Source: Umezawaea tangerina
GTDB taxonomy: Bacteria; Actinomycetota; Actinomycetes; Mycobacteriales; Pseudonocardiaceae
NCBI RefSeq assembly: GCF_003002815.1
Contig: NZ_PVTF01000021.1
Span: 37,798-69,797 of the forward strand
Direction: 5' to 3'
Length of the DNA stretch: 32,000 nt
Shown: one piece after another, positions 9,928 through 21,085 of the stretch
Numbering within the stretch: position 1 is the stretch's first letter
Layout of the letters: every line of letters begins with the position of its first letter
Position numbers and translations under genes: made by a program
The notes under the pieces: model-generated
The model's database searches: none
What the model saw: the letters and a program-made list of their open reading frames with translations, nothing else
What the model was told of the DNA's origin: nothing

Positions 9928-10437
9928 TCACCAGCCCTCGACGAGCCCCCACCAGAGCGAGTCCTCGCCGACGGTGGGGTCCTTCTCCCGCACGAGCTCG
10001 AAGAACCGGTCCAGCCGGTCGTAGGTCTCGTCGTCGAACGGGGCGGCGCGCAGCGCGGTGTTCACGCCGTACCAGCGCCACGCCGTCTCCACGAGCAGGG
10101 CGCCCGAGCCGTTGACCCAGTACCGGGGCACGGTCGCGGTCTCCAGCGTGGAGAACCCCTCGACCGTGCCCGTGTCGGCGGCGGTGACGAGGTCGGCGTG
10201 CGAGAGCGTGCCGAGCCGGTAGTAGACGCGGTCCTCGTCCTCGATGACCGCGTCGAACGACGGCCGGAGCTCCGACGGGGCGATGACCGGGAGGCCCCAC
10301 CTCCGGTACGCCCGCAGGTCGGCGTCCGGGAGCCGCCACGACGTCACCGACGCCGGTGGCATGGTCTGCACCGACGGCACGACCAGGTCGTCCAGCGGCG
10401 CGGAGAGCGAGTGCTCGTAGAGCTCCAGTGGTTCCAC
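9928..10437 (-). CDS. Putative cognate immunity protein (SUKH superfamily, SUKH-4-like), 169 aa.
   Basis: It starts (GTG 10437, or ATG 10362) 12 nt after the toxin stop on the same strand. It is acidic and Trp-rich. Segments 'WRLPDADLRAYRRWGLP', 'YYRLG' and 'YWVNGSGALLVETAWRW' resemble SUKH-4 immunity proteins. The rest of the 537-aa ORF is antisense junk over the toxin gene. Confidence 0.7.
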   Translation of the reverse strand: MEPLELYEHSLSAPLDDLVVPSVQTMPPASVTSWRLPDADLRAYRRWGLPVIAPSELRPSFDAVIEDEDRVYYRLGTLSHADLVTAADTGTVEGFSTLETATVPRYWVNGSGALLVETAWRWYGVNTALRAAPFDDETYDRLDRFFELVREKDPTVGEDSLWWGLVEGW

Positions 10438-10448
10438 GGCGTCGGATC

Positions 10449-13400
10449 CTACGGGTGCCCCTGGGTCATCCACCTGTTGATCGCCGACCAGTTCTCCCTC
10501 CGGGTGCCGTCGAGGCTCCAGGTGATGGCGGCGTTCTTGTACTGGCCGACGACGCCCGCGCAGTCGTGGTTGGGCATCGAGCACGGCACGCGCTCGGAGT
10601 AGATCCGGGTGACCTGCTCGGGCTTGATGCCGCGGGCCTGCAGCTCGGCCTGCATGATCTGCTCGGAGTGCAGACCACCGGGGTCGTTGGCCTGGACCAG
10701 GTACTGCTTGCCGGTCGGTGTCTCGTACTCGTACACCGCGACGTTCTGGTGCGAGCCGACGCCCTCGTTCAGCCGGTGCTCGTAGGCCATCTTGCTGAGG
10801 TCGGTCTCGCCGAGGCGCACCGGTCCCTGCCTGCCGCACACCGCGAGCCCGTAGGGGTCGACGAACCGCAGCGGGTTGCCCGCGTAGGCGTAGTGGTTGG
10901 GCGACGGTGCCAGCCCCAGCGGGTCCGGGCCGGTGTAGCGGCCCGTCCACGGGTCGTAGTACCGGAAGACGTTGTAGTGCAGGCCGGTCTCGGTGTCGTG
11001 GTACTGGCCGGGGAAGCGCAGCGGGCAGTCCGTGGTGGACCGCGAGCCCAGCAGCGCGCCCCACGCCGAGAACGAGGCCTGCCAGGTGGTCCGGCCGTCG
11101 GCGCCGACCAGCGCGGTGGGCCTGCCGACGTGGTCGGTGACGACGGCGTGGAAGCCGGTGCCGTCGAGCTGGGCGAGCGGGGTGGACGTGCCCGCCTCGT
11201 GCACCCACGTCGTGACCCCGACGCCGGTGGCGTGCTGCTCGGCCAGGTCGAAGCCGTCCCAGGCGAAGTCGACGCGCAGCTGCCCGGAGGTCTTGGCGCA
11301 GCGGCGGCCGAGCGCGTCGTAGAGGTACCGCCAGGTACGACCGTCCGGTGTGGACACCTCGACGAGCTGGTCGTAGGCGTTCCACGAGTAGCGCCAGAGC
11401 AGGACCTGGCCGGAGAGCGTGTGCCTGCGGACCTCGCTCACCCGGCCCTGGCCGTCGTAAGCGCAGGTCGTGCGGCCCGCGGCCCGCAGCAGGCCGCGGT
11501 CGAACTCGCGCTGCCCCTCGGCGTCGCCGCCGGGCAGCCACGCGGCGGCGGTGATGTTGCCCGCCAGGTCGTAGTCGTAGCGCTCGGTGTTGTCCGGCGA
11601 GTGGACCGCGGCGACGCGGCCCATGACGTCCAGGTCGACGCGGGTCGGGCCGTCGCCGACCAGGTAGCCGTCGGGCCGCCAGCGCAGCTGCCTGCGCTGT
11701 CCCGCGAACTCCTGCGCCGCGAGCCTGCCGACGGCGTCCCAGGTCTGGGCCAGGACCAGGTGGGCGTCGAGGTTGTGCGCCACGGTGCGCCCGAGGCGGT
11801 CGCGGTCGAACGTCAGCGCGTGCCCACCCGCCCGCACCGAGGCCAGGCCGCCCGCCGGGTCGTAGCCGTAGTCCACGGCCGCGCCCGACGGCGTCACCCG
11901 GCGCACCCGCCTGCCCGCGGCGTCGTAGCTGTTGACCAGCACCCGGCCGTTGAACGCCTCGGTCAGCACCCGGCCGACCGGGTCGCGGGTCAGGGTGATC
12001 TCACCCGCCTCGTTGACCGCGCGGACCACCTGGCCCTGCGAGTCGTACTCGTAGGTGGTCTCGCCGCCGTCGTCGGCGACCTGCCGCACGCGCCTGCCCG
12101 CGGCGTCGTAGGCGAAGGTGACCGTCTGGCCCGCGCCGTTGGTGCTGGACACGACCCGACCGGCCGCGTCGTGGGCGTAGGTGACGACACGACCGTGGAA
12201 GTCCTGCTCCCGCACCAGGTTCCCGGCCGGGTCGTAGGTGTAGGTCCACGTCCGGCCCTGCGCGTTCGTGACGGCGGTGACGCGCTGCTCGGTGTCGTAG
12301 GCGAACGCCGTCCGCGCGCCGTCGGCGGTGACCCGCGCGGCGGGCAGGTCGAAGTCGCCGATCTCGAACGTCGTGCGCCTGCCGCCCGCGTCGACGTGCT
12401 CGACGAGGTTGCCCTCGCCGTCGTGGCGCCAGGTCTCCCGGCCGCCGTCGGGCCCGAGCCGCCACGCGGGCTGGCCGTCGACGGTCCAGCCGTAGCGGGT
12501 GGTGCCCTCGAGCGGGTCGACGACGGCGACCAGCCGTCCGAAGACGTCGCGCTCGTAGCGGTGCCGGTTGCCGCGCGGGTCGACCATGGTGATCGGCAGG
12601 CCCGCGGCGTTGCAGGTGATGACGCTGGTGGCGCCGGTCGCGTCCGTCCGGCTCGCGAGGTGCCCGTACGCGTCGTAGGTCGTGCGGGTCGTCCCGCCCG
12701 GACCGGTCTCCGCGAGGAGGTTGCCGCGGGCGTCGTAGGTGTACTCCGTGGTCGCGACCCCGTCGGAGACCGAAGTGGACAGTCCGAACCTGTTGTACGC
12801 CAGGCTCCTGGTCGACCCAGTGGGCTCGACGATCTCGACGACGTGCCCGGCCTCGTCGTACCGGTAGCGCGTCGTGTTGCCGACCGCGTCCGTGCGGGCG
12901 AGCAGGCGGTCGTAGCGGTCCCACTCGCTGGTCACGCTGTGCCCCAGCGGATCCACGACCCGCACGATCTGCCGCAGCGCGTTAAGGTGGTAGACCGACT
13001 CGTTGCCGAGCGAGTCCTGCACGGTCGTCGCCGAGTCGTCGTAGCGGAACCGGGCGTTGAGGATGCCGCCGGTGCCCTCGGCCCACGCCACCCGGCCGCG
13101 CGCGTCGAAGTGGTAGCGGTAGCGGGTTCCCCTGCGGTCGGTCCAGCCGACGATCCGCCCGTCGCCGTCGTAGTCGAAGACGTGCGGCAGACCGGAGGCG
13201 TTGGTCACGCGGGTGAGGTCGCCGGAGTCGTCGTAGCCGAACGACATCAGCGGGATGTCGCCGAGCCGGTAGCCGGTGACGCGGCCGCGTGCGGTCTCGA
13301 CGGTGACGCGGTAGCCGCCGGAATGCCTGATCTCCGTGGGCATCCCGTCCGCGTCGGTGACGAAGTCGATGCGGTCGCCGTTGCGGTCGGTGATCGCCCG

Positions 13401-14840
13401 CAGCGGCGCCAGTCCGGCCACGCCGGACGGCGCGAAGTGCAGGACGTGCCCGTTCGGCCGGGTGATCCGGTAGGTGCCGTCGGCGTCCAGCGCCAACGGC
13501 CAGCGCGGCCCCTCCACCGGCAGGACGGACTCGCCGCGCGCCGGCGCGGGGTAGACGAGCATGATCGCGTCCGCGCCCGCGAAGCACACGCCCTGCTCGT
13601 CCACCTCCAGCCGCTGGTCCACGGTGGACGCCCAGGACCGGCCGAAGAGCCTGCCGACCCGGTAGGAGGAGATGTGCGTCCGTTGCAGGACGAGGCCGAG
13701 GTCGGCGGGCAGCGTGACGTCGGTCTGGGTGAGGAACATGTCGCCGGTGACGACGTCGACCGGGTCGCCGCAGCCCGTGCGGTTCTCCGCCTCCTGCACG
13801 GTCGACCGCGGGTCCTCGGTCTGGCTCCGCACGGACGAGTCCTCGGCGGGCGGCTTCCCGTTGCCCGACGGCTCGCCGGGAGTGCCCTCGGCCGTGGAGG
13901 TGTGCGTCTCGCCGCCGGGCGGGGCGTGCTCGCCGCCCGCCGGGTGCGGTTCCGCGCTGGCGACGTGGGTTTCCCCGCCCGCGCTGGACACGTGCGTCTC
14001 ACCGCCACCGCCGCCCGTGTGCGGTTCGGCCGACGACACGTGCGTGCCGCCGCCCTCGCTGGCGTGCAGGCGCGGCTCCTCGACGTGCCCGTGCAGCGCG
14101 GCCATCACCTTCTGCACGCCCTGCCAGATCTCCTCGAGCTTGCTCATGATCGGCCGCAGCTTCTCGACCGAGTTGATCAGCTTCTTGATCGTGGCGCCGA
14201 TCTTCTCGGTCCACGCCGCGACCTGCTCGACGACCTGGGCCACGACGAACGGCGTGCCGAGGCCGAGGGTGAACACCTCCTCCAGCGCGTCCTGGATGAA
14301 GTCGCCGACGGCCTGCGTGACCATGTCCCGCACCAGGGCGCGCACGACACCGGTGATGACGCCGACCACCTTCACGACCGTGCTGATCGCGCTCGCGCAG
14401 GTGGCGATGGTGGAGAGCCCGTCGACCCTGTCCCCGACGTGCTTGCGGTAGGCGTCGGCGGCAGGCCCCGACCAGGTCGCCGTGTCCTTGGTGGCTGCGT
14501 CGGTGAGGCTCTTCCCGGCGTCCTGCACGGCTTTCGCGACGTTGGCCCACGTCTGCGAGTACGCGGCGATCTGGTCGCCGTCGCCCGCGAGCTGGTTGAG
14601 CGCGTCCTGGAGCGGCTTGACGTGCTCGATGAGCCAGTTCAGGCCGTAGGAGATGAGCGTGCCGACCGGGTTCATCGCCATGGTCAGCAGGTCCATGCCC
14701 GCGCCGAGCGCGGAGATGCCGCCCTCGATCCAGCTCCCCGACTCGACCGCGTCGTAGACGCCCGCGGCGTCGTCCACCAGGTTGATCCCGGTGTGCCAGG
14801 TCGTGGAGTCCTGCTTCTGGGCCAGGAGCGGGTTGGTCAC
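10449..14840 (-). CDS. Rhs/YD-repeat polymorphic toxin of 1463 aa. It has a WXG-containing T7SS-type N-terminal domain, a repeat linker, an Rhs shell, an Rhs core and a C-terminal deaminase-like toxin tip.
   Basis: - N-terminal 'GLNWLIEHVKPLQDALNQLAGDGDQIAAYSQTW...ATWSGPAADAYR' contains a WxG motif.
- 'GDPVDVVTGDMFLTQTDVTLP' is an Rhs N-terminal plug-type motif.
- There are dozens of YD repeats (for example 'YDAAGR', 'YTYDARGNL').
- The core reads 'PLRFPGQYHDTETGLHYNVFRYYDPWTGRYTGPDPLGL...NPLRFVDPYGL'.
- The GTG start overlaps the upstream stop (GTGA). Confidence 0.95.
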   Translation of the reverse strand: MTNPLLAQKQDSTTWHTGINLVDDAAGVYDAVESGSWIEGGISALGAGMDLLTMAMNPVGTLISYGLNWLIEHVKPLQDALNQLAGDGDQIAAYSQTWANVAKAVQDAGKSLTDAATKDTATWSGPAADAYRKHVGDRVDGLSTIATCASAISTVVKVVGVITGVVRALVRDMVTQAVGDFIQDALEEVFTLGLGTPFVVAQVVEQVAAWTEKIGATIKKLINSVEKLRPIMSKLEEIWQGVQKVMAALHGHVEEPRLHASEGGGTHVSSAEPHTGGGGGETHVSSAGGETHVASAEPHPAGGEHAPPGGETHTSTAEGTPGEPSGNGKPPAEDSSVRSQTEDPRSTVQEAENRTGCGDPVDVVTGDMFLTQTDVTLPADLGLVLQRTHISSYRVGRLFGRSWASTVDQRLEVDEQGVCFAGADAIMLVYPAPARGESVLPVEGPRWPLALDADGTYRITRPNGHVLHFAPSGVAGLAPLRAITDRNGDRIDFVTDADGMPTEIRHSGGYRVTVETARGRVTGYRLGDIPLMSFGYDDSGDLTRVTNASGLPHVFDYDGDGRIVGWTDRRGTRYRYHFDARGRVAWAEGTGGILNARFRYDDSATTVQDSLGNESVYHLNALRQIVRVVDPLGHSVTSEWDRYDRLLARTDAVGNTTRYRYDEAGHVVEIVEPTGSTRSLAYNRFGLSTSVSDGVATTEYTYDARGNLLAETGPGGTTRTTYDAYGHLASRTDATGATSVITCNAAGLPITMVDPRGNRHRYERDVFGRLVAVVDPLEGTTRYGWTVDGQPAWRLGPDGGRETWRHDGEGNLVEHVDAGGRRTTFEIGDFDLPAARVTADGARTAFAYDTEQRVTAVTNAQGRTWTYTYDPAGNLVREQDFHGRVVTYAHDAAGRVVSSTNGAGQTVTFAYDAAGRRVRQVADDGGETTYEYDSQGQVVRAVNEAGEITLTRDPVGRVLTEAFNGRVLVNSYDAAGRRVRRVTPSGAAVDYGYDPAGGLASVRAGGHALTFDRDRLGRTVAHNLDAHLVLAQTWDAVGRLAAQEFAGQRRQLRWRPDGYLVGDGPTRVDLDVMGRVAAVHSPDNTERYDYDLAGNITAAAWLPGGDAEGQREFDRGLLRAAGRTTCAYDGQGRVSEVRRHTLSGQVLLWRYSWNAYDQLVEVSTPDGRTWRYLYDALGRRCAKTSGQLRVDFAWDGFDLAEQHATGVGVTTWVHEAGTSTPLAQLDGTGFHAVVTDHVGRPTALVGADGRTTWQASFSAWGALLGSRSTTDCPLRFPGQYHDTETGLHYNVFRYYDPWTGRYTGPDPLGLAPSPNHYAYAGNPLRFVDPYGLAVCGRQGPVRLGETDLSKMAYEHRLNEGVGSHQNVAVYEYETPTGKQYLVQANDPGGLHSEQIMQAELQARGIKPEQVTRIYSERVPCSMPNHDCAGVVGQYKNAAITWSLDGTRRENWSAINRWMTQGHP
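10452..10844 (-). other. C-terminal toxin domain (131 aa after DPYGL), predicted to be a nucleic-acid deaminase fold (DddA/SCP1.201-like).
   Basis: 'GGLHSEQIMQAELQARGI' gives H-x-E (His codon 10668-10670, Glu codon 10662-10664). 'IYSERVPCSMPNHDCAGVV' gives P-C-x6-C (Cys codons 10581-10583 and 10560-10562). The implied order is strand, HxE helix, strand, PC..C helix, strand, as expected for a deaminase fold. Confidence 0.6.
13881..14066 (-). repeat. Degenerate in-frame tandem repeats encoding a His/Gly/Ser/Thr/Glu-rich linker (GGTHVSSAEPH / GETHVSSA / GETHVASAEPH / GEHAPP / GETHTSTA).
   Basis: Toxin residues about 259-320. At DNA level, ACGTGCGTCTC(A/G)CCGCC-like units recur at irregular spacing. 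Confidence 0.8.
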
Positions 14841-15154
14841 GACAGCTCCTTCCCGATGGCGGAGAAGCTGTCCGCCAGGGTGCGGTCCACGGTGTCGTAG
14901 TGCTCGGCGGTCGCCTCGACCTCGTTCGCGGTGTCGGTGATCGCCTGCCGCGCGGCCCGCAGCGCGAGCACACCGGGGGCGCTGACCGCCATGACGATGG
15001 GCACGAACAGCGGGCCGCAGATCATCCCGTAGGCCTGCACTCCCACGGTGACCTGCTGGGCGGCCTCCACGGCCTGGCCCAGCGCGTCGGCGACCTGCCG
15101 CACGGACCCGGCGTGGGTGTGCAGCTCGCCCGGCGTGACCTGGTAGCCGCTCAT
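14837..15154 (-). CDS. EspC/WXG100-like small helical T7SS-associated protein (105 aa).
   Basis: 'MSGYQVTPGELHTHAGSVRQVADAL...AYGMICGPLF' resembles the EspC-type 'type VII secretion target' family. C-terminal 'HYDTVD' is a YxxxD motif (14885-14899). ATGA overlap with the upstream gene and GTGA overlap with the toxin. Confidence 0.8.
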   Translation of the reverse strand: MSGYQVTPGELHTHAGSVRQVADALGQAVEAAQQVTVGVQAYGMICGPLFVPIVMAVSAPGVLALRAARQAITDTANEVEATAEHYDTVDRTLADSFSAIGKELS

Positions 15155-15573
15155 CGGTCCATCACCGACCCGAAGTCCTCGTCGTCGTCGGGTTTCGGCG
15201 GTGGCGACGGCCTGTCCCCCGGATCGGGCTCGGGGAACCTCGCGCGGTAGGTCCCGACGATGGTGTCGACGGTCTGCTTGTCGTCGCCGATCGTCTCGGC
15301 CATCACACCCGCGAGCGCCTCCGGCAGCCTGGCCTGCGCCCGGCGCATGGTGAGCAGGACGGCCTTCGCCAGCTCGTCGTGCTCCTTGATCCGGAGGTCC
15401 GTGACGTTGCCGCCGGAGTCGATCGTGACGGTCACCGGGCCTTCGGTCTCGGTGACGGAGACGGCCTGCGCCAGCACGCGCATCTCCTGGTAGCGCTCGG
15501 CTTTCGCCTTGGCCTGCGCGACCCACGCGTCGATCCCCGCGCTCGCGCTTCCGCCAGGTATCGGACCAGTCAT
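15151..15573 (-). CDS. YbaB/EbfC-like small protein (140 aa) with an acidic Pro-rich tail.
   Basis: 'AERYQEMRVLAQAVSVTETEGPVTVTIDSGGNVTDLRIKE...LAKAVLLTMRRAQARL' matches the YbaB/EbfC pattern. ATG 15573 has a strong SD site (GGAGGGG) 7 nt upstream. In-frame upstream ATGs at 15663 and 15681 lack SD sites. Confidence 0.8.
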   Translation of the reverse strand: MTGPIPGGSASAGIDAWVAQAKAKAERYQEMRVLAQAVSVTETEGPVTVTIDSGGNVTDLRIKEHDELAKAVLLTMRRAQARLPEALAGVMAETIGDDKQTVDTIVGTYRARFPEPDPGDRPSPPPKPDDDEDFGSVMDR

Positions 15574-15578
15574 CACGA

Positions 15579-15648
15579 TCCCCTCCACCGGGTTGGGCGC
15601 TCGGTGCGACGAACACTGTGTGCCCGCCGTTCCCACCGGTGGAGGGGA
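15579..15648 (-). promoter_or_regulatory. Leader hairpin. A 13-nt perfect anti-SD segment (15636-15648) pairs with the SD region of the ybaB-like gene (15579-15591), leaving a 44-nt loop.
   Basis: On the plus strand, TCCCCTCCACCGG at 15579-15591 is the exact reverse complement of CCGGTGGAGGGGA at 15636-15648. The downstream arm contains the GGAGGGG SD site. Confidence 0.35.
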
Positions 15649-15772
15649 ATCTCCGAGCGCCATCCGATTGGCGCATGACAAACGGTGGCGTTTCCGTCAA
15701 ACCGCCCAGAGTGCCGTGACCGCAACGGGAGCCCGCCGAACCCGGTGGTCCCGCGAGCCCTCGCGCGCCCGT

Positions 15773-17014: not shown

Positions 17015-17673
17015 TCAGACCACCTTCCCGTCGCGCATGGACACCCGGCGGGGCAGCCCGGCGGCGATCTCCCGGTCGTGCGTGACGACCACGACGGTCG
17101 TGCCCGCCGAGTGCAGCTCGCGCAGCAGCGCGAGCACGCCCGCCCCGGACGCGGTGTCCAGGTTCCCGGTCGGCTCGTCGGCCAGCAGCAGCGCGGGTTC
17201 CCCCGCCACCGCCCGCGCGATGGCCACCCGCTGCCGCTCACCGCCGGACAGCTCGTGCGGCGCGTGGTGCAGCCGGTCGCGCAGCCCCACCCGCACCAGC
17301 GCGGCCTCCGCTCGCCGCCTGCGCTCCCGCGCCGCACACCGGCGTAGAGCAGCCCGTCCGCCACGTCGTCCAGCGCCGCCTGCCCCCGCGCCAGGTGGAA
17401 CTGCTGGAACACGAACCCGACCCGCCGCGCCCGCAACGCCGACAGCTGCCCGTCCGACAGCGCGGCGACGTCGTACCCCTCCACCCGCACCGTCCCCTCC
17501 GACGGCCGGTCCAGCGTGCCGATCAGCTGCAGCATCGTGGACTTGCCCGACCCGGACGGGCCGACGACGGCGACCATCTCCCCGTGGTCGATGGACAGCG
17601 TGACGCCGTCCAGCGCCCTGACCCCGCCCTCGTACACCTTGCCGACGCCTGCCAGCTCCACCACCGGGCTCAC
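17015..17673 (-). pseudogene. ABC transporter ATP-binding protein (MacB-type) interrupted by an apparent 1-nt deletion near 17329-17338.
   Basis: The N-terminal half (Walker A 'GPSGSGKST', '...FVFQQFHL...DGLLYAGV') is in one frame. The C-terminal half ('[40 protein letters not shown]', '[12 protein letters not shown]', 'VVVTHD') is in another. The span is 659 nt, one short of a multiple of 3. Confidence 0.8.
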
Positions 17674-18749
17674 GCGGGCATCCCCACCGTCGTGCCCTCG
17701 GCGAGCCCGTCGCCGGTGACCTCGACCCGGCCCGCGGCGAACATCCCGGTCCGCACCGGCACGATCCGGGTCGCGCCGTCCTCCACCACCTGCACGCCGT
17801 ACCCGCCCTCGGCGAGCGCGAGCAGCGCGGCCACCGGAACGGTCAGCACGTCCTCCCGCTCGGCGGCGGTGAACCCGACCCGGACCGACGCCCGGTCGAG
17901 CCCCGCCAGCACCGCGGCGTCGTCGGGGGTGACGGTGACGGCGATCTTCGTGACGGGGTCGGCCTTCCCGTCGCCGGGGTCGACCACGGTCCGGCTGTCG
18001 GTGATCCTCCCCGTGGTGGGCTTCCCGTCGGGCAAGGTGAGGGTGACGGGGGCGTCGCGCACCACCAGCCGCTCGTCGGACACGTCGAGCTCGGCGGTGA
18101 CCAGCCGGACGGTGCCGGTGCGGGTGAGCACGGCGGTGTCCGGCCGGGCCCGGTCGCCGACGGCGGCCTTGAGGCCGTCCACGCGCACCGGGCCCGCGGC
18201 GTGCGCGATCCGCCCCTGGTCGACCGTCCCGGTCTTCGCGACCCCGAGGTCGCCCTGCCACCCGCGCACGGCCGCGGCGGTGGCCTCGGTGTAGGTGTCG
18301 TCGGCGGTGAACCCGGTGTACCCCAGTGCGGACAGGTTCTGCTCGAACTGCGCGACGTCCGCGCCCGTCGTCCCCGGCGCCAGCGTGCGGTAGGCGGGCA
18401 GCGGCCCCTAGAGCAGCACGACGGGGGTGTCGTCGACCCGGTAGAGGGCCTGCCCGCGGTCGACCGAGGTCCCCGGTTCGGGCAGCCAGGTCAGCACCCC
18501 GTCGAGCCGCGCGTCGACCGTGGTGGCGGCGCCGTAGCCGAGGTCGCCGCTCTCGGTCTCGGTGTCGACCAGGGTCTGCCTGGTCAGCCGGGCGGTCGCG
18601 GGTGGCGGGTCCACGTGGCCGCCGTCGGCCCGGTCGGTCTCCCACAGCCCGGCCGCGGCTCCGGTGGACACCGCGACCGCGGCGCCGGTCGTGACCACGA
18701 CGGCGACCACGACCACCACCCGGCAGGTCCTCCTGCGTCTCGTGGTCAC
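17670..18749 (-). pseudogene. Peptidoglycan-binding / HlyD-like periplasmic adaptor protein with an in-frame TAG at 18408-18410.
   Basis: There is one continuous frame: signal anchor 'RVVVVVAVVVTTGAAVAV', then '...YRVDDTPVVLL*GPLPAYRTL', a PG_binding_1-like 'GADVAQFEQNLSALGYTGFTADDTYTEATAAAVRGWQGDLG', and a beta-barrel tail. Both flanking junctions are GTGA overlaps. Confidence 0.75.
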
Positions 18750-19102
18750 CGGCCGGACTCCTGCTTCTCGGAACGGGTGCCGCCGCCGTCGGGCAGGTGC
18801 CGCTGCGCGCAGGTCTGCTCGACGGACCGGTAGTCGGGGCTCATCGGGTCCATGCCTGGCGTGCCGTCGATCTTGATCCCGCCGTTCTCGTCCGAGTCGG
18901 GGAAGCCCGGCAGACCGTTGTCCCGCATGCACTTCGCGTACTCGAGCGCGGCCGCCTCCTCATCGCGCGGACCGGCGACCGCGCTGGCGGACGTGGCTCC
19001 GGTGCCCGCCGAGGCCACGTCGTTCCCGTTGTCCGCCGCGCCGCACGCGGCCAGTCCCCACACCAGCAGCGGCCAGAGGACGAGCGTCGTCCTGGTGCGC
19101 AT
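18746..19102 (-). CDS. Small lipoprotein (118 aa).
   Basis: 'MRTRTTLVLWPLLVWGLAACGAADNG' is a signal peptide with the lipobox L-A-A-C. GGGAGG SD site upstream of ATG 19102. Confidence 0.7.
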   Translation of the reverse strand: MRTRTTLVLWPLLVWGLAACGAADNGNDVASAGTGATSASAVAGPRDEEAAALEYAKCMRDNGLPGFPDSDENGGIKIDGTPGMDPMSPDYRSVEQTCAQRHLPDGGGTRSEKQESGR

Positions 19103-19229
19103 GGTCACCTCCCGTGACACCGGCCGGGGCTGTCCCGGCCGTGGGACGCAGTCGACCGGACGCGGCATCACCGGGGCGTCTCCGAGAACGATGACGTCGA
19201 CGTGACGGGGGTGCGGTCACCATGGGGGC

Positions 19230-19886
19230 ATGCGGATCCTGGTGGTGGAGGACGAGCCGTTGCTCGCTGGCGCGGTGGCGGAAGGGCTGCGCGCCGACGC
19301 GCACGCGGTGGACGTCGTGCACGACGGGGGAGCGGCGCTGGAGCGGGTCGACGTGCACGACCACGACGCGGTGGTGCTCGACCGCGACCTGCCGGTGGTG
19401 CACGGCGACGAGGTGTGCCGGGTGCTCGCCGCCCGCGACGGCAGCGTGCGGGTGCTGATGCTGACCGCCGCCGTGGAGGTCGACGACCGGGTCGCGGGGC
19501 TCGCGCTCGGCGCGGACGACCACCTGCCGAAGCCCTTCGCGTTCGCGGAGCTGTCCGCGCGGGTCGTGGCGCTGGGGCGGCGGTCCCGGCCCGCCGTGCC
19601 GCCGGTGCTGCACCGCGCGGGCATCCGGCTCGACCCGCACCGGCGCGAGGTGTACCGGGAGGGGCGGTACGTCCCGTTGTCCCGCAAGGAGTTCGCGGTC
19701 CTGTTCGAGCTGCTGCGCGCCGACGGTGCCGCGGTGTCCGCGGAACGGCTGCTGGAGAAGGCGTGGGACGAGCACGCGGACCCGTTCACGCACACCGTGC
19801 GGATGACGATCCCCAAGCTGCGCCGCAAGCTCGGCGACCCGGCCGTCGTGCTGACCGATCCCGGAGTGGGGTACCGGATCCCGTGA
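19230..19886 (+). CDS. OmpR/PhoB-family response regulator.
   Basis: Receiver domain 'MRILVVEDEP...VVLDRDLP' followed by a winged-helix domain '...LSRKEFAVLFELL...VGYRI'. Confidence 0.95.
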   Translation: MRILVVEDEPLLAGAVAEGLRADAHAVDVVHDGGAALERVDVHDHDAVVLDRDLPVVHGDEVCRVLAARDGSVRVLMLTAAVEVDDRVAGLALGADDHLPKPFAFAELSARVVALGRRSRPAVPPVLHRAGIRLDPHRREVYREGRYVPLSRKEFAVLFELLRADGAAVSAERLLEKAWDEHADPFTHTVRMTIPKLRRKLGDPAVVLTDPGVGYRIP

Positions 19887-21085
19887 AGAGGCTCACCCCG
19901 TCGAACCTGACCATCCGCGCCCGCCTGACCCTGGTCTACGGCGGGCTTTTCCTCCTCGCGGGCGTGCTCATGCTGGCCGTCACCTACGCCCTGGTCGCCC
20001 AGCGGACGCACGACCAGCCCGCCCTCACCGTGACGAACTCGACCACCGACCCGGCCGCGCTCGCGCCGCCGGAGGAGGGGCGGACCTTCATCACCGAGTA
20101 CGCGCGGGAGGCCAGGCAGGACGTGCTGGACTCGGTGCTCACCCAGGGCGGGATCGCGCTGGCCGTCGTCGGGGTCGTCGCCGTCGCGCTCGGCCGGCTG
20201 ATCGCGGGCAGGCTGCTCCAGCCGCTGCACCGGGTCACCGACACCGCCAGGCGGATAGCGCGCGCGCCCGCGGCCGACCGGAGTCTGCACGAGCGCATCG
20301 CCCTGGAGGGGCCGCACGACGAGATCAAGGAGCTGGGCGACACCTTCGACCTCATGGTGGAGCGCCTCGACCGCTCCTTCGACGGCCGGCGCCGGTTCAT
20401 CGCCAACGCCTCGCACGAGCTGCGCACACCGCTGACCCTCAACCGGACGCTGCTGGAGATCGCCCTCCAGCGCCCCACCGCGTCGCCGGACGTGCTCCAG
20501 CTCGGCGAGACCCTGCTGGAGATCAACACCCGGCACGAGCGGCTGATCGACGGCCTCCTGCTGCTGGCCCGCTCCGAGCGCGAGATCACCGAGGCGTCCT
20601 ACGTGGACCTCGCCGACCTCGCGGACCACGTCGTCGACCACACCCCGGCGGGGGAGGGCCGGGTGGACGTCGAGCCGGGGGAGGCCCCGACCACGGGCAA
20701 CCCGGTGCTGCTGGAACGGCTGGTGCAGAACCTCGTGGAGAACGGCGTGCGCCACAACGTCCCCAGCGGCGGCTGGGTCCGGGTCCGGACCGGCACGGCC
20801 GCGGACGGCTCGGCGGTTCTGGAGGTCACCAACACCGGCCCGGTCGTCCCGCGCTACGACGTCCCCGCCCTGTTCGAGCCGTTCCGCAGGCTGACCACCC
20901 CGCGCCAGTCGGCCACCACCCCCGGCGCGGGCCTGGGCCTGTCGATCGTCCGCGCCGTCGCCAGGGCGCACGGCGGCGACGTCCACGCAGAACCGCGCGA
21001 GGGCGGCGGTCTGACCGTCACCACGACCCTGCCCGGTCCGGTCGGCGTGCCGGGCAAGGACCTCGTCGGGGCCGCGGTGGGCTGA
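19883..21085 (+). CDS. Sensor histidine kinase (two TM segments, HAMP, HisKA, HATPase_c).
   Basis: H-box 'FIANASHELRTPLT', N-box 'LVENGVRHN' and G-box 'GAGLGLSIV'. The GTG start overlaps the response regulator stop (GTGA). Confidence 0.95.
   Translation: MKRLTPSNLTIRARLTLVYGGLFLLAGVLMLAVTYALVAQRTHDQPALTVTNSTTDPAALAPPEEGRTFITEYAREARQDVLDSVLTQGGIALAVVGVVAVALGRLIAGRLLQPLHRVTDTARRIARAPAADRSLHERIALEGPHDEIKELGDTFDLMVERLDRSFDGRRRFIANASHELRTPLTLNRTLLEIALQRPTASPDVLQLGETLLEINTRHERLIDGLLLLARSEREITEASYVDLADLADHVVDHTPAGEGRVDVEPGEAPTTGNPVLLERLVQNLVENGVRHNVPSGGWVRVRTGTAADGSAVLEVTNTGPVVPRYDVPALFEPFRRLTTPRQSATTPGAGLGLSIVRAVARAHGGDVHAEPREGGGLTVTTTLPGPVGVPGKDLVGAAVG

Follow-up and report, generated by a model that had tools for sequence, protein, structure and literature searches.

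A 32,000-nucleotide stretch of the Umezawaea tangerina genome (contig NZ_PVTF01000021.1; hereafter the window) contains four co-directional minus-strand genes, at 9928..15573, which are predicted to encode, in this order, a YbaB-like protein, an EspC-like protein, an Rhs toxin and a SUKH-4 immunity protein. We consider this locus, with a probability of roughly 60%, to be a polymorphic-toxin cassette that is self-contained, horizontally mobile and of the actinobacterial ESX type, the T7SSa branch of the type VII secretion systems (T7SS). The best reading of its export would be passage through an ESX-type T7SS encoded elsewhere, because the helper pair formed by the first two gene products mirrors the mycobacterial EspD/EspC/EspA and EspH/EspF/EspE triads.

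The four open reading frames (ORFs) of the initial annotation proved to be real genes. Each carries a coding signature, with a GC content of 0.86–0.98 at third codon positions (GC3) and a low one at second positions (GC2), and on a public contig with an identical toxin (Logan SRR6479252) an independent gene caller arrived at products of 140, 105, 1463 and 169 amino acids (aa). The genes are tightly packed: the YbaB-like and EspC-like genes share an ATGA overlap and the EspC-like and toxin genes a GTGA overlap, as originally described, but the gap between the toxin gene and the GTG start of the immunity gene measures 11 nt rather than 12. Selection on all four genes is purifying but relaxed, with ratios of nonsynonymous to synonymous divergence (dN/dS) of 0.27–0.82: 0.27–0.34 for the toxin, 0.33–0.43 for the YbaB-like protein and 0.38–0.42 for the immunity protein. 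The EspC-like gene evolves fastest (0.57–0.82, against 0.27–0.43 for the other three), a rate that fits a specificity-determining partner role. This fairly high ratio, together with the frameshift in an adjoining ATP-binding cassette (ABC) ATPase gene, might also suggest a decaying or inactive remnant; however, none of the four ORFs is broken in any of four genomes, the catalytic HSE/PCx6C as well as the DPYGL, WxG and YxxxD motifs persist, and every cassette gene has a dN/dS below 1, which makes decay highly improbable.

The Rhs toxin and its immunity protein

Beyond its N-terminal domain and linker, the 1463-aa toxin is dominated by RHS repeats (PF05593, E=9.8e-77, in 18 stretches; TIGR01643, E=5e-80), preceded by DUF6531 at residues 358–424 and closed by the Rhs-associated core (TIGR03696, residues 1258–1332, E=4e-24). 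Repeats and a core ending in DPxGL, followed by a variable toxin, assign the predicted product to the Rhs/YD-repeat polymorphic toxins. Similarity to 27 other proteins that join the same N-terminal domain to an Rhs core stops at the DPYGL motif, the predicted release site. A second motif, DPLGL, lies at residues 1306–1310, and a third, DPGGL at residue 1386, was rejected as a cleavage site because it falls inside the deaminase, beside the catalytic HSE.

The C-terminus scores 55.1 bits against PF14440 (E=8.6e-15; cut-off 27) and holds the zinc-binding motifs HSE and PCSMPNHDC (PCx6C), which place it by sequence among the XOO_2897-like deaminases; the domain, of about 130 aa, is presumably a cytosine deaminase. 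It has no sequence match in the PDB. The product of the downstream gene scores 32.2 bits against SUKH-4 (PF14435; cut-off 25.5) and is acidic, with 29 Asp and Glu residues against 14 Lys and Arg. Both assignments agree with the initial annotation, which had described an Rhs-deaminase toxin and a small, acidic SUKH-type immunity protein.

Comparison with 30 relatives that carry both the N-terminal domain and an Rhs region showed the N-terminal domain to be 42–94% identical and the Rhs core 37–89% identical in 29/30, the remaining one (L070) having no match to the window Rhs core. Only three of the 30 (L008, 96%; L009, 89%; L010, 85%) have both the deaminase C-terminus and the SUKH-4 gene in common with the window, and within this set the SUKH-4 gene occurs solely with that C-terminus. 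Retention of the N-terminal domain and Rhs core while the C-terminus and immunity gene are swapped is, at the sequence level, the classic Rhs C-terminal displacement pattern. Score, position directly downstream and co-variation with the toxin C-terminus all point to the SUKH-4 protein as the cognate immunity protein, predicted to protect the producer and its kin.

Helper proteins, N-terminal domain and proposed export route

Conservation of the helper genes was assessed in the 79 best relatives among at least 455 loci with the N-terminal domain, which were found by scanning a single genome of each species. Of these relatives, 66/79 have an EspC-like ORF directly upstream of the toxin gene, 59/79 have a YbaB-like ORF upstream, and 58/79 have both, including 24 of the 31 relatives that are Rhs-sized; the 4-nt overlap between EspC-like stop and toxin start is kept in 39/66. 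The order YbaB_DNA_bd, T7SS_ESX_EspC, toxin and small ORF recurs in precomputed Pfam calls for other public contigs. Given the two upstream frequencies and the recurring overlap, the helper association is therefore real and general rather than a chance arrangement. The initial annotation had cast the two upstream genes as partners of the toxin and had called for such a survey of neighbourhoods; as conserved neighbours they bear this idea out.

The family itself is large. A search with toxin residues 1–260 returned proteins of Amycolatopsis, Lentzea, Saccharothrix and Natronosporangium, most of them 420–450 aa long and ending in ADP-ribosyltransferase (ART), CdiA-tRNase or EndoU domains. Against 1.84 billion cluster representatives the domain profile matched 2240 clusters, 959 of them at E≤1e-30; residues 1–250 hold the domain throughout, and about 22 of the top 150 are Rhs-sized. 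The closest among the matches listed come from Umezawaea sp. NPDC059074 (94%), Lentzea (84–92%) and Amycolatopsis (72–77%), followed by Saccharopolyspora, Actinokineospora, Micromonosporaceae and Nocardia. Toxin genes without helpers, several of them Rhs-sized, are found at L013, L014, L026, L027, L028, L043, L045, L047, L056 and L059; such copies may use helpers in trans. Paralogous cassettes also occur within one genome, in Lentzea NPDC004782 (L010, L026) and in Actinoplanes NPDC051346 (L054, L064, L069). L070 (CAVSPJ010000008.1) comprises a full locus of YbaB-like, EspC-like and 1350-aa toxin genes; its 1.1-Mb contig bears the label of an uncultured Gemmatimonadales metagenome-assembled genome, which points either to a mis-binned or mislabelled contig or to a cassette from outside Actinomycetota.

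Taken alone, the YbaB-like protein falls below the Pfam cut-off for PF02575, but a profile built from 15 family members matches YbaB of E. coli (1pug, E=3.8e-9) and of H. influenzae (1j8b, 1e-7) as well as the nucleoid-associated Rv3716c, and PF02575 is matched by 15/15 members (best E=1e-11). By sequence the protein belongs to the YbaB/EbfC fold family, as first annotated. The family has a long acidic Pro/Glu/Asp tail, and the window protein carries a net charge of about −8.

Similarly, the 105-aa second gene product, previously described as EspC/WXG100-like, is assigned by its sequence to the EspC family (PF10824, 41.1 bits against a cut-off of 23.5, residues 5–97). PF10824 is matched by 15/16 members of its family and PE by 4/16; the PE match of the window protein is weak and under the cut-off (E=0.03), and the family profile finds only weak PE25 and EsxA/B matches in the PDB (E 0.4–3). 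The predicted export-arm motif YxxxD/E is present on this partner: across a 16-sequence alignment the tyrosine is kept in 13/16 and the acidic residue at +4 in 16/16, and a C-terminal Y...[DE] motif occurs in 49/67. H14, A41 and G43 are invariant, and Y42 and C46 nearly so. Residues 45–63 (14966..15022) form a transmembrane-grade hydrophobic stretch (Kyte-Doolittle 1.99 over 19 residues).

The toxin N-terminal domain (residues 1–255) has sub-threshold Pfam matches at residues 86–158, to WXG100_2 (E=2e-4), PPE (0.01) and T7SS_signal (0.014). Its homologues pass the Pfam cut-offs, and NCBI and UniRef call them 'WXG100 family type VII secretion target'. W123 of the WxG motif is invariant and G125 at least 90% conserved (A1 and A3), with Y131-R132 following. 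Across this motif the family profile matches the ESAT-6-like protein MAB_3112 of M. abscessus (4i0x, EsxE/F-type; E=4e-4), with weaker matches to PPE15, EsxA and EsxB. An AlphaFold2 model from an 80-sequence alignment is all-helical, with a predicted local distance difference test score (pLDDT) of 67.5 overall and 70–95 for residues 90–250; a model from a 10-sequence alignment was unusable (pLDDT 43.6). Foldseek aligned the former to 4i0x with probability 1.0 and a template modelling (TM) score of 0.77–0.83 over 64–69 residues, and to PPE15/PPE41 with a TM score of about 0.54. The structural comparison proposed in the initial annotation gave matches of the anticipated kind, though not at E≤1e-3 and ranked behind generic helical bundles, and we regard the fold evidence as supportive but not decisive. 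Together, sequence and model are consistent with the WxG helix-turn-helix of an EsxAB/WXG100-clan substrate. With the YxxxD/E arm on the small partner and WxG on the large one, the layout may be PE/PPE-like.

Pfam scanning and the sequence itself gave no Sec-type signal, PAAR or VgrG match in the toxin, in keeping with the earlier proposal that a helical WXG-type domain takes their place. Nor did the toxin scan yield a match to the LXG Pfam domain at E≤0.1; by sequence the domain is not an LXG domain, although an LXG-like mode of action would be possible. The block at residues 15–68 (14637..14798; SGSW...DPxGxLxSxGxxWLIEHVKPL) is the most conserved of the domain, yet the worst region of the model, and could, as pure conjecture, be a docking site for the YbaB-like or EspC-like partner. 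A second transmembrane-grade hydrophobic stretch lies at residues 148–170 (14331..14399; Kyte-Doolittle 1.94 over 19 residues); this and its counterpart in the EspC-like protein could be either buried bundle interfaces or membrane-active segments. A GxxxG membrane motif was rejected, conservation being limited to the first glycine. No Pfam domain was found in the linker at residues 256–355, and the region between N-terminal domain and Rhs shell is variable in relatives too.

We suggest the following route. The N-terminal domain (WxG) would pair with the EspC-like protein (YxxxD) in a PE/PPE-like or EspC/EspA-like helical bundle; an EccC ATPase whose gene lies elsewhere may read this bundle as a composite T7SS signal. 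As a cytosolic chaperone of the EspD/EspH/EspL kind, the YbaB-fold protein would stabilise this pre-secretion complex, and it is probably not itself exported. This role is suggested by conserved synteny, translational coupling and analogy: ESX-1 substrates of the EspC/EspA and EspF/EspE types have the YbaB-fold proteins EspD, EspH and EspL as chaperones, EspD stabilises EspA/EspC, and the YbaB fold of all three has been predicted or shown (PMC6109436, PMC6107294, PMC6319747). As has been argued for Listeria LrhA (PMC10327511), the Rhs part would probably be exported unfolded or acquire its fold outside the cell. After delivery, the deaminase may be freed at DPYGL by aspartyl autoproteolysis and may mutate or damage nucleic acid in competitor cells.

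That the YbaB-like protein is instead a DNA-binding regulator of the cassette promoter, of the nucleoid-associated YbaB/EbfC type, with toxin and export unchanged, seems to us quite unlikely. In its favour, DNA-binding proteins are what define the fold family, matches to the profile include the E. coli, H. influenzae and Rv3716c proteins, and the conserved leader offers repeated GTTTG motifs as a potential operator. However, a stoichiometric partner is suggested by the ATGA coupling with the EspC-like gene and by the constancy of gene order, and the acidic tail of the family and the net negative charge also speak against a regulator. Moreover, the ESX-linked YbaB-fold proteins EspD, EspH and EspL act on proteins; EspH binds EspE, and an espH deletion has been tested for mRNA effects (PMC6107294, PMC6319747).

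Several points weigh against ESX-type export. The window sequences taken singly stay below the Pfam cut-offs (WXG100_2, 22.0 against 27 for the N-terminal domain; PF02575, 21.3 against 25.5 bits for the YbaB-like protein); the domain model is of medium confidence and falls below 50 at residues 15–68; generic BAR-like bundles top the Foldseek list against the PDB, where no match reaches E≤1e-3; and about 11/79 relatives have neither helper. As the initial annotation had noted, no ecc or mycP (T7SS core) genes are present among the 28 window ORFs scanned. A crude screen, which a truncated or atypical EccC could escape, found no EccC within 10 kb of the 79 relatives, so that the physical link to a T7SS is one of homology; two EccC candidates with two Walker A motifs near relatives proved to be ABC transporters. 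A folded Rhs cage of about 86x65 Å exceeds the estimated 30 Å T7SS pore (PMC10327511), and the literature searched contained no experimentally shown T7SSa antibacterial toxin outside mycobacteria.

Some of these points would also fit an N-terminal module that is not a T7SS signal, the toxin being cell-associated or freed by lysis or another route and the hydrophobic helices of both proteins serving as a membrane or envelope anchor or as a translocation device. Weak fold matches of the N-terminal domain, T7SS genes seen neither in the window nor, by the crude screen, beside any relative, and cages seemingly too big for the pore (PMC10327511) are what such an arrangement would lead one to expect. 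We nevertheless hold it to be distinctly improbable, as ESX substrates are indicated by membership in the EspC family, by the WxG and YxxxD/E motifs and by the putative EspD-like chaperone, the hydrophobic helices lie within long predicted bundle helices, and GxxxG is not conserved. Substrates are, besides, often encoded apart from the machinery, as are espACD and the Listeria LXG hotspots (PMC10327511). An Amycolatopsis strain, also of the Pseudonocardiaceae, has been reported to possess an eccB-eccC-eccD-mycP cluster (PMC11004387).

Probable transfer of the cassette; leader and flanks

In blastn searches the cassette, along with about 135 nt of leader, has counterparts in two Lentzea genomes and in Umezawaea sp. 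NPDC059074, at a nucleotide identity of 84–91%. Homology breaks off sharply, on one side with the immunity gene's stop codon and on the other about 135 nt before the first start codon. The 10-kb flanks of the four genomes bear no relation to one another, which holds among L008–L010 as well, and the neighbours in L008–L010 are ordinary metabolic or regulatory genes. These observations suggest that the promoter-to-immunity unit moves between genomes, with no mobility genes seen. They run counter to the initial annotation, which had taken the cassette for a resident locus rather than a fresh insertion. Its two grounds were nonetheless sound: the GC content of the window is 0.70–0.77, that of the cassette (0.70–0.75) being the same as in its flanks with no compositional break, and there is no integrase or transposase in the window, nor beside the L008–L010 copies. 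Terminal repeats were likewise not found at the recurring unit, and PLSDB yielded no DNA match to the cassette and one weak protein match. An old, vertically inherited locus would account for all of this. It would not account for homology that stops so abruptly in four unrelated contexts, for an Umezawaea-Lentzea identity (86%) that is not lower than the Lentzea-Lentzea one (84%), or for synonymous divergence (dS) of only 0.19–0.51 among the orthologous cassettes, and the matching GC content is expected if the donors were related Pseudonocardiaceae. Vertical inheritance is, on balance, unlikely, and we favour transfer of the unit.

The upstream end of the cassette had been placed at 15648, which is slightly off, because the ATG at 15573 and its ribosome-binding site, GGAGGGGA, are kept in the three orthologous cassettes; the upstream limit is 15573 for the coding sequence and 15708 for the conserved unit. 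An alternative GTG at 15576 is not kept in them. Besides the ribosome-binding site, the leader holds a repeated motif, GGTTTGACGG...CCGTTTGTCAT; it starts with TGGGCGGTTTGACGGnAACnCnCCGTTTGTCATGCGCCAATCGGATGGCG, and within it lie a TTGACG and two half-sites that contain GTTTG. Scanning it for a sigma-70 consensus promoter gave nothing, and neither the promoter/terminator scan nor Rfam gave a match; for this reason the conserved leader may be an operator or an unusual promoter.

The adjacent MacB-type ABC transporter was rejected as part of the system because the orthologous cassettes have entirely different neighbours. Its ATPase gene (17015..17700, minus strand), upstream of an FtsX permease gene (15811..~17040), is split over two frames with a break near 17300–17330, the Walker A half lying in one frame and the LSGGQ half (ORF 17015..17296) in another, which indicates a frameshift mutation or a sequencing error. 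Between this transporter and a divergent two-component system (19230..21085) are three coding-looking minus-strand ORFs (17670..18269/18407, 18408..18932 and 18746..19216); ORFs within 17670..19216 had no Pfam match at E≤1e-3.

Table 1. Positions of the cassette genes, predicted domains and motifs in the window, and of the recurring unit in the window and three orthologous loci
Feature	Position	Strand	Details and basis
YbaB/EbfC-fold protein	15151..15573	minus	140 aa; PF02575 E=3e-4, family profile
EspC-family (PE/WXG100-like) small helical protein	14837..15154	minus	105 aa; PF10824 E=2.6e-10
Polymorphic Rhs toxin	10449..14840	minus	1463 aa
SUKH-4 immunity protein (predicted)	9928..10437	minus	169 aa; PF14435 E=1.4e-7
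YDTVD, putative YxxxD/E export-arm motif, EspC-like residues 86–90 (Y86-DTV-D90)	14885..14899	minus	alignment
All-helical WXG100_2-type N-terminal domain, toxin aa 1–255	14076..14840	minus	proposed T7SS targeting domain
WSG (WxG motif), toxin residues 123–125	14466..14474	minus	family conservation
Low-complexity Gly/Pro/His/Glu linker, toxin aa 256–355	13776..14075	minus	GGETHVSSA-like near-repeats; translation
Rhs shell (DUF6531 plug, YD repeats, Rhs-associated core), toxin aa 356–1333	10842..13775	minus	Pfam/TIGR
DPYGL, Rhs core end, predicted autoproteolytic release site, toxin aa 1328–1332	10845..10859	minus	similarity to Rhs relatives stops there
XOO_2897-like deaminase, toxin aa 1334–1463	10449..10841	minus	PF14440 at 1365–1443
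Conserved 5' leader	15574..15708	minus	homology with three orthologous cassettes starts at 15703–15708 and runs through the leader
Recurring unit, ~5.8 kb	window 9923/9928..15703/15708; L008 9135..14907; L009 9135..14934; L010 9140..14946		
Window flanks of the cassette			TetR/hydrolase genes; MacB-type ABC genes

Comparison with known systems

The initial annotation, to whose knowledge the module lacked a functional characterisation of how an ESX-type system handles a ~160-kDa Rhs cage, overstated the novelty of the toxin. Table 1 of Iyer 2011 lists Actinobacteria, T7SS, RHS repeats and SUKH4 for the XOO_2897 deaminase clade (PMC3239186), and for actinobacterial T7SS toxins Zhang 2012 lists RHS repeats together with N-terminal domains of the WxG/LxG/LDxD kinds (PMC3482391); the predicted toxin/immunity pairing and architecture of the cassette match these XOO_2897/SUKH-4 and WXG-RHS entries exactly. 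Since the architecture was already catalogued in 2011–2012 and Pfam and NCBI names cover the N-terminal domain, the window therefore contains one more member of the family: the cassette is an ordinary representative of a large, annotated group in soil actinomycetes and would not surprise a specialist. The two catalogues contain nothing experimental on this and, in the passages searched, do not mention YbaB-like or EspC-like helpers, the words 'YbaB' and 'EspC' each occurring 0 times in PMC3482391. The conserved YbaB and EspC helper pair on actinobacterial toxins is the part that is undescribed in the literature searched; we found no account of such a pair on polymorphic toxins outside mycobacteria, although subscription journals were largely outside the search and absence is not proof. 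With the same restriction on subscription journals, no experimental work on T7SSa antibacterial toxins was found, and a 2026 review attributes antibacterial T7SS toxins to Bacillota only (PMC13460014).

A genetic linkage of Rhs toxins to both T7SSa and T7SSb has been described (PMC11217815; see also PMC10327511). T6SS (type VI secretion system) Rhs effectors and the BC cocoons of Tc toxins have, like the predicted toxin described here, a YD-repeat shell round a C-terminal toxin and DPxGL aspartyl-protease release, but the cassette lacks a PAAR, VgrG-binding or TcB/SpvB module and has a WXG-type helical N-terminus instead. LrhA of Listeria monocytogenes, an Rhs toxin linked to T7SSb EssC8, resembles the cassette toxin in that it is without a Sec signal, has small WXG100-like genes before it and an immunity gene after it, and raises the same question of how a ~86x65 Å cage gets through a ~30 Å pore (PMC10327511). 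It differs in adjoining essC, in an N-terminus without a recognised domain, in its three small helical genes with no YbaB-fold protein, and in belonging to Bacillota.

Firmicute LXG toxins require small helical partners and a chaperone (PMC10801868). With their Lap1/Lap2 or Lap3/Lap4 partners and DUF4176 chaperones, they combine, as here, an N-terminal helical targeting domain with small helical partners encoded immediately upstream and have, like the cassette, a polymorphic C-terminal toxin, a downstream immunity gene and sometimes a non-secreted chaperone (PMC10801868, PMC12478183). The firmicute analogy drawn in the initial annotation is apt as regards this partner logic, but not as regards LXG membership: the cassette has no LXG Pfam match, replaces the two Laps by a YbaB-fold protein and a single helical partner, and would be of T7SSa type in a different phylum, whereas LXG systems are T7SSb systems of Firmicutes. 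The EspD/EspC/EspA triad is the closer analogue.

Within Actinomycetota, the CpnT/TNT operon of M. tuberculosis (esxF-esxE-cpnT-ift) resembles the cassette in its upstream small WXG-type genes, helical N-terminal domain and downstream immunity gene, and is the sole experimentally shown actinobacterial T7SS toxin/immunity operon in the literature searched (PMC8092274). CpnT-related likeness is also seen in the best PDB sequence match of the cassette domain profile, the M. abscessus EsxE/F-type protein 4i0x. CpnT depends on the EsxEF pair encoded upstream of it and on a YxxxE motif (PMC8092274). There, the motif is on the toxin itself and two Esx proteins take part, whereas in the cassette YxxxD is on the EspC-like partner; the CpnT operon has neither a YbaB-fold gene nor an Rhs cage, and its NAD+ glycohydrolase is aimed at host cells.

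According to the literature searched, interbacterial killing by a T7SS has been shown experimentally in Bacillota only, and the one proven T7SS toxin of Actinomycetota is the host-directed CpnT. The cassette, with at least 455 genomic relatives and a conserved leader, offers a compact and tractable four-gene model that bears on whether the ESX systems of antibiotic-producing actinomycetes are antibacterial weapons, on what YbaB-fold 'Esp' chaperones do, and on how a T7SS with a ~30 Å pore handles an Rhs cage. Its deaminase clade, for which no solved structure was found by sequence search, may be of interest for base-editor mining.

The ESX-1 triads EspA-EspC-EspD and EspE-EspF-EspH (with EspL) appear, by analogy, to contain the same three roles as the cassette proteins: a small helical protein of the EspC family that bears YxxxD/E, a larger partner whose N-terminal domain is helical and of WxG type, and a YbaB-fold stabiliser. 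The N-terminal domain of the cassette toxin is likened to EspA and EspE by this role and not by sequence homology. Tentatively, and with odds clearly below even, we propose that the YbaB-fold and EspC-like pair is a general targeting and chaperone module for ESX export of polymorphic toxins in soil actinomycetes, 160-kDa Rhs cages included, that EspA/C/D and EspE/F/H are its domesticated descendants, and that the cassettes move as promoter-to-immunity units without mobility genes. The hosts of the cassette are probably non-mycolate actinomycetes, which, unlike mycobacteria, have no outer mycomembrane. Like those of the cassette, the genes of the ESX-1 triads lie apart from the ecc core genes or at their edge; the gene order differs (ybaB-espC-substrate here, espA-espC-espD in ESX-1). 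Whereas the ESX-1 triads are host-directed virulence factors, the large partner here carries an Rhs cage and a deaminase and is accompanied by an immunity gene, as would be expected of an interbacterial weapon.

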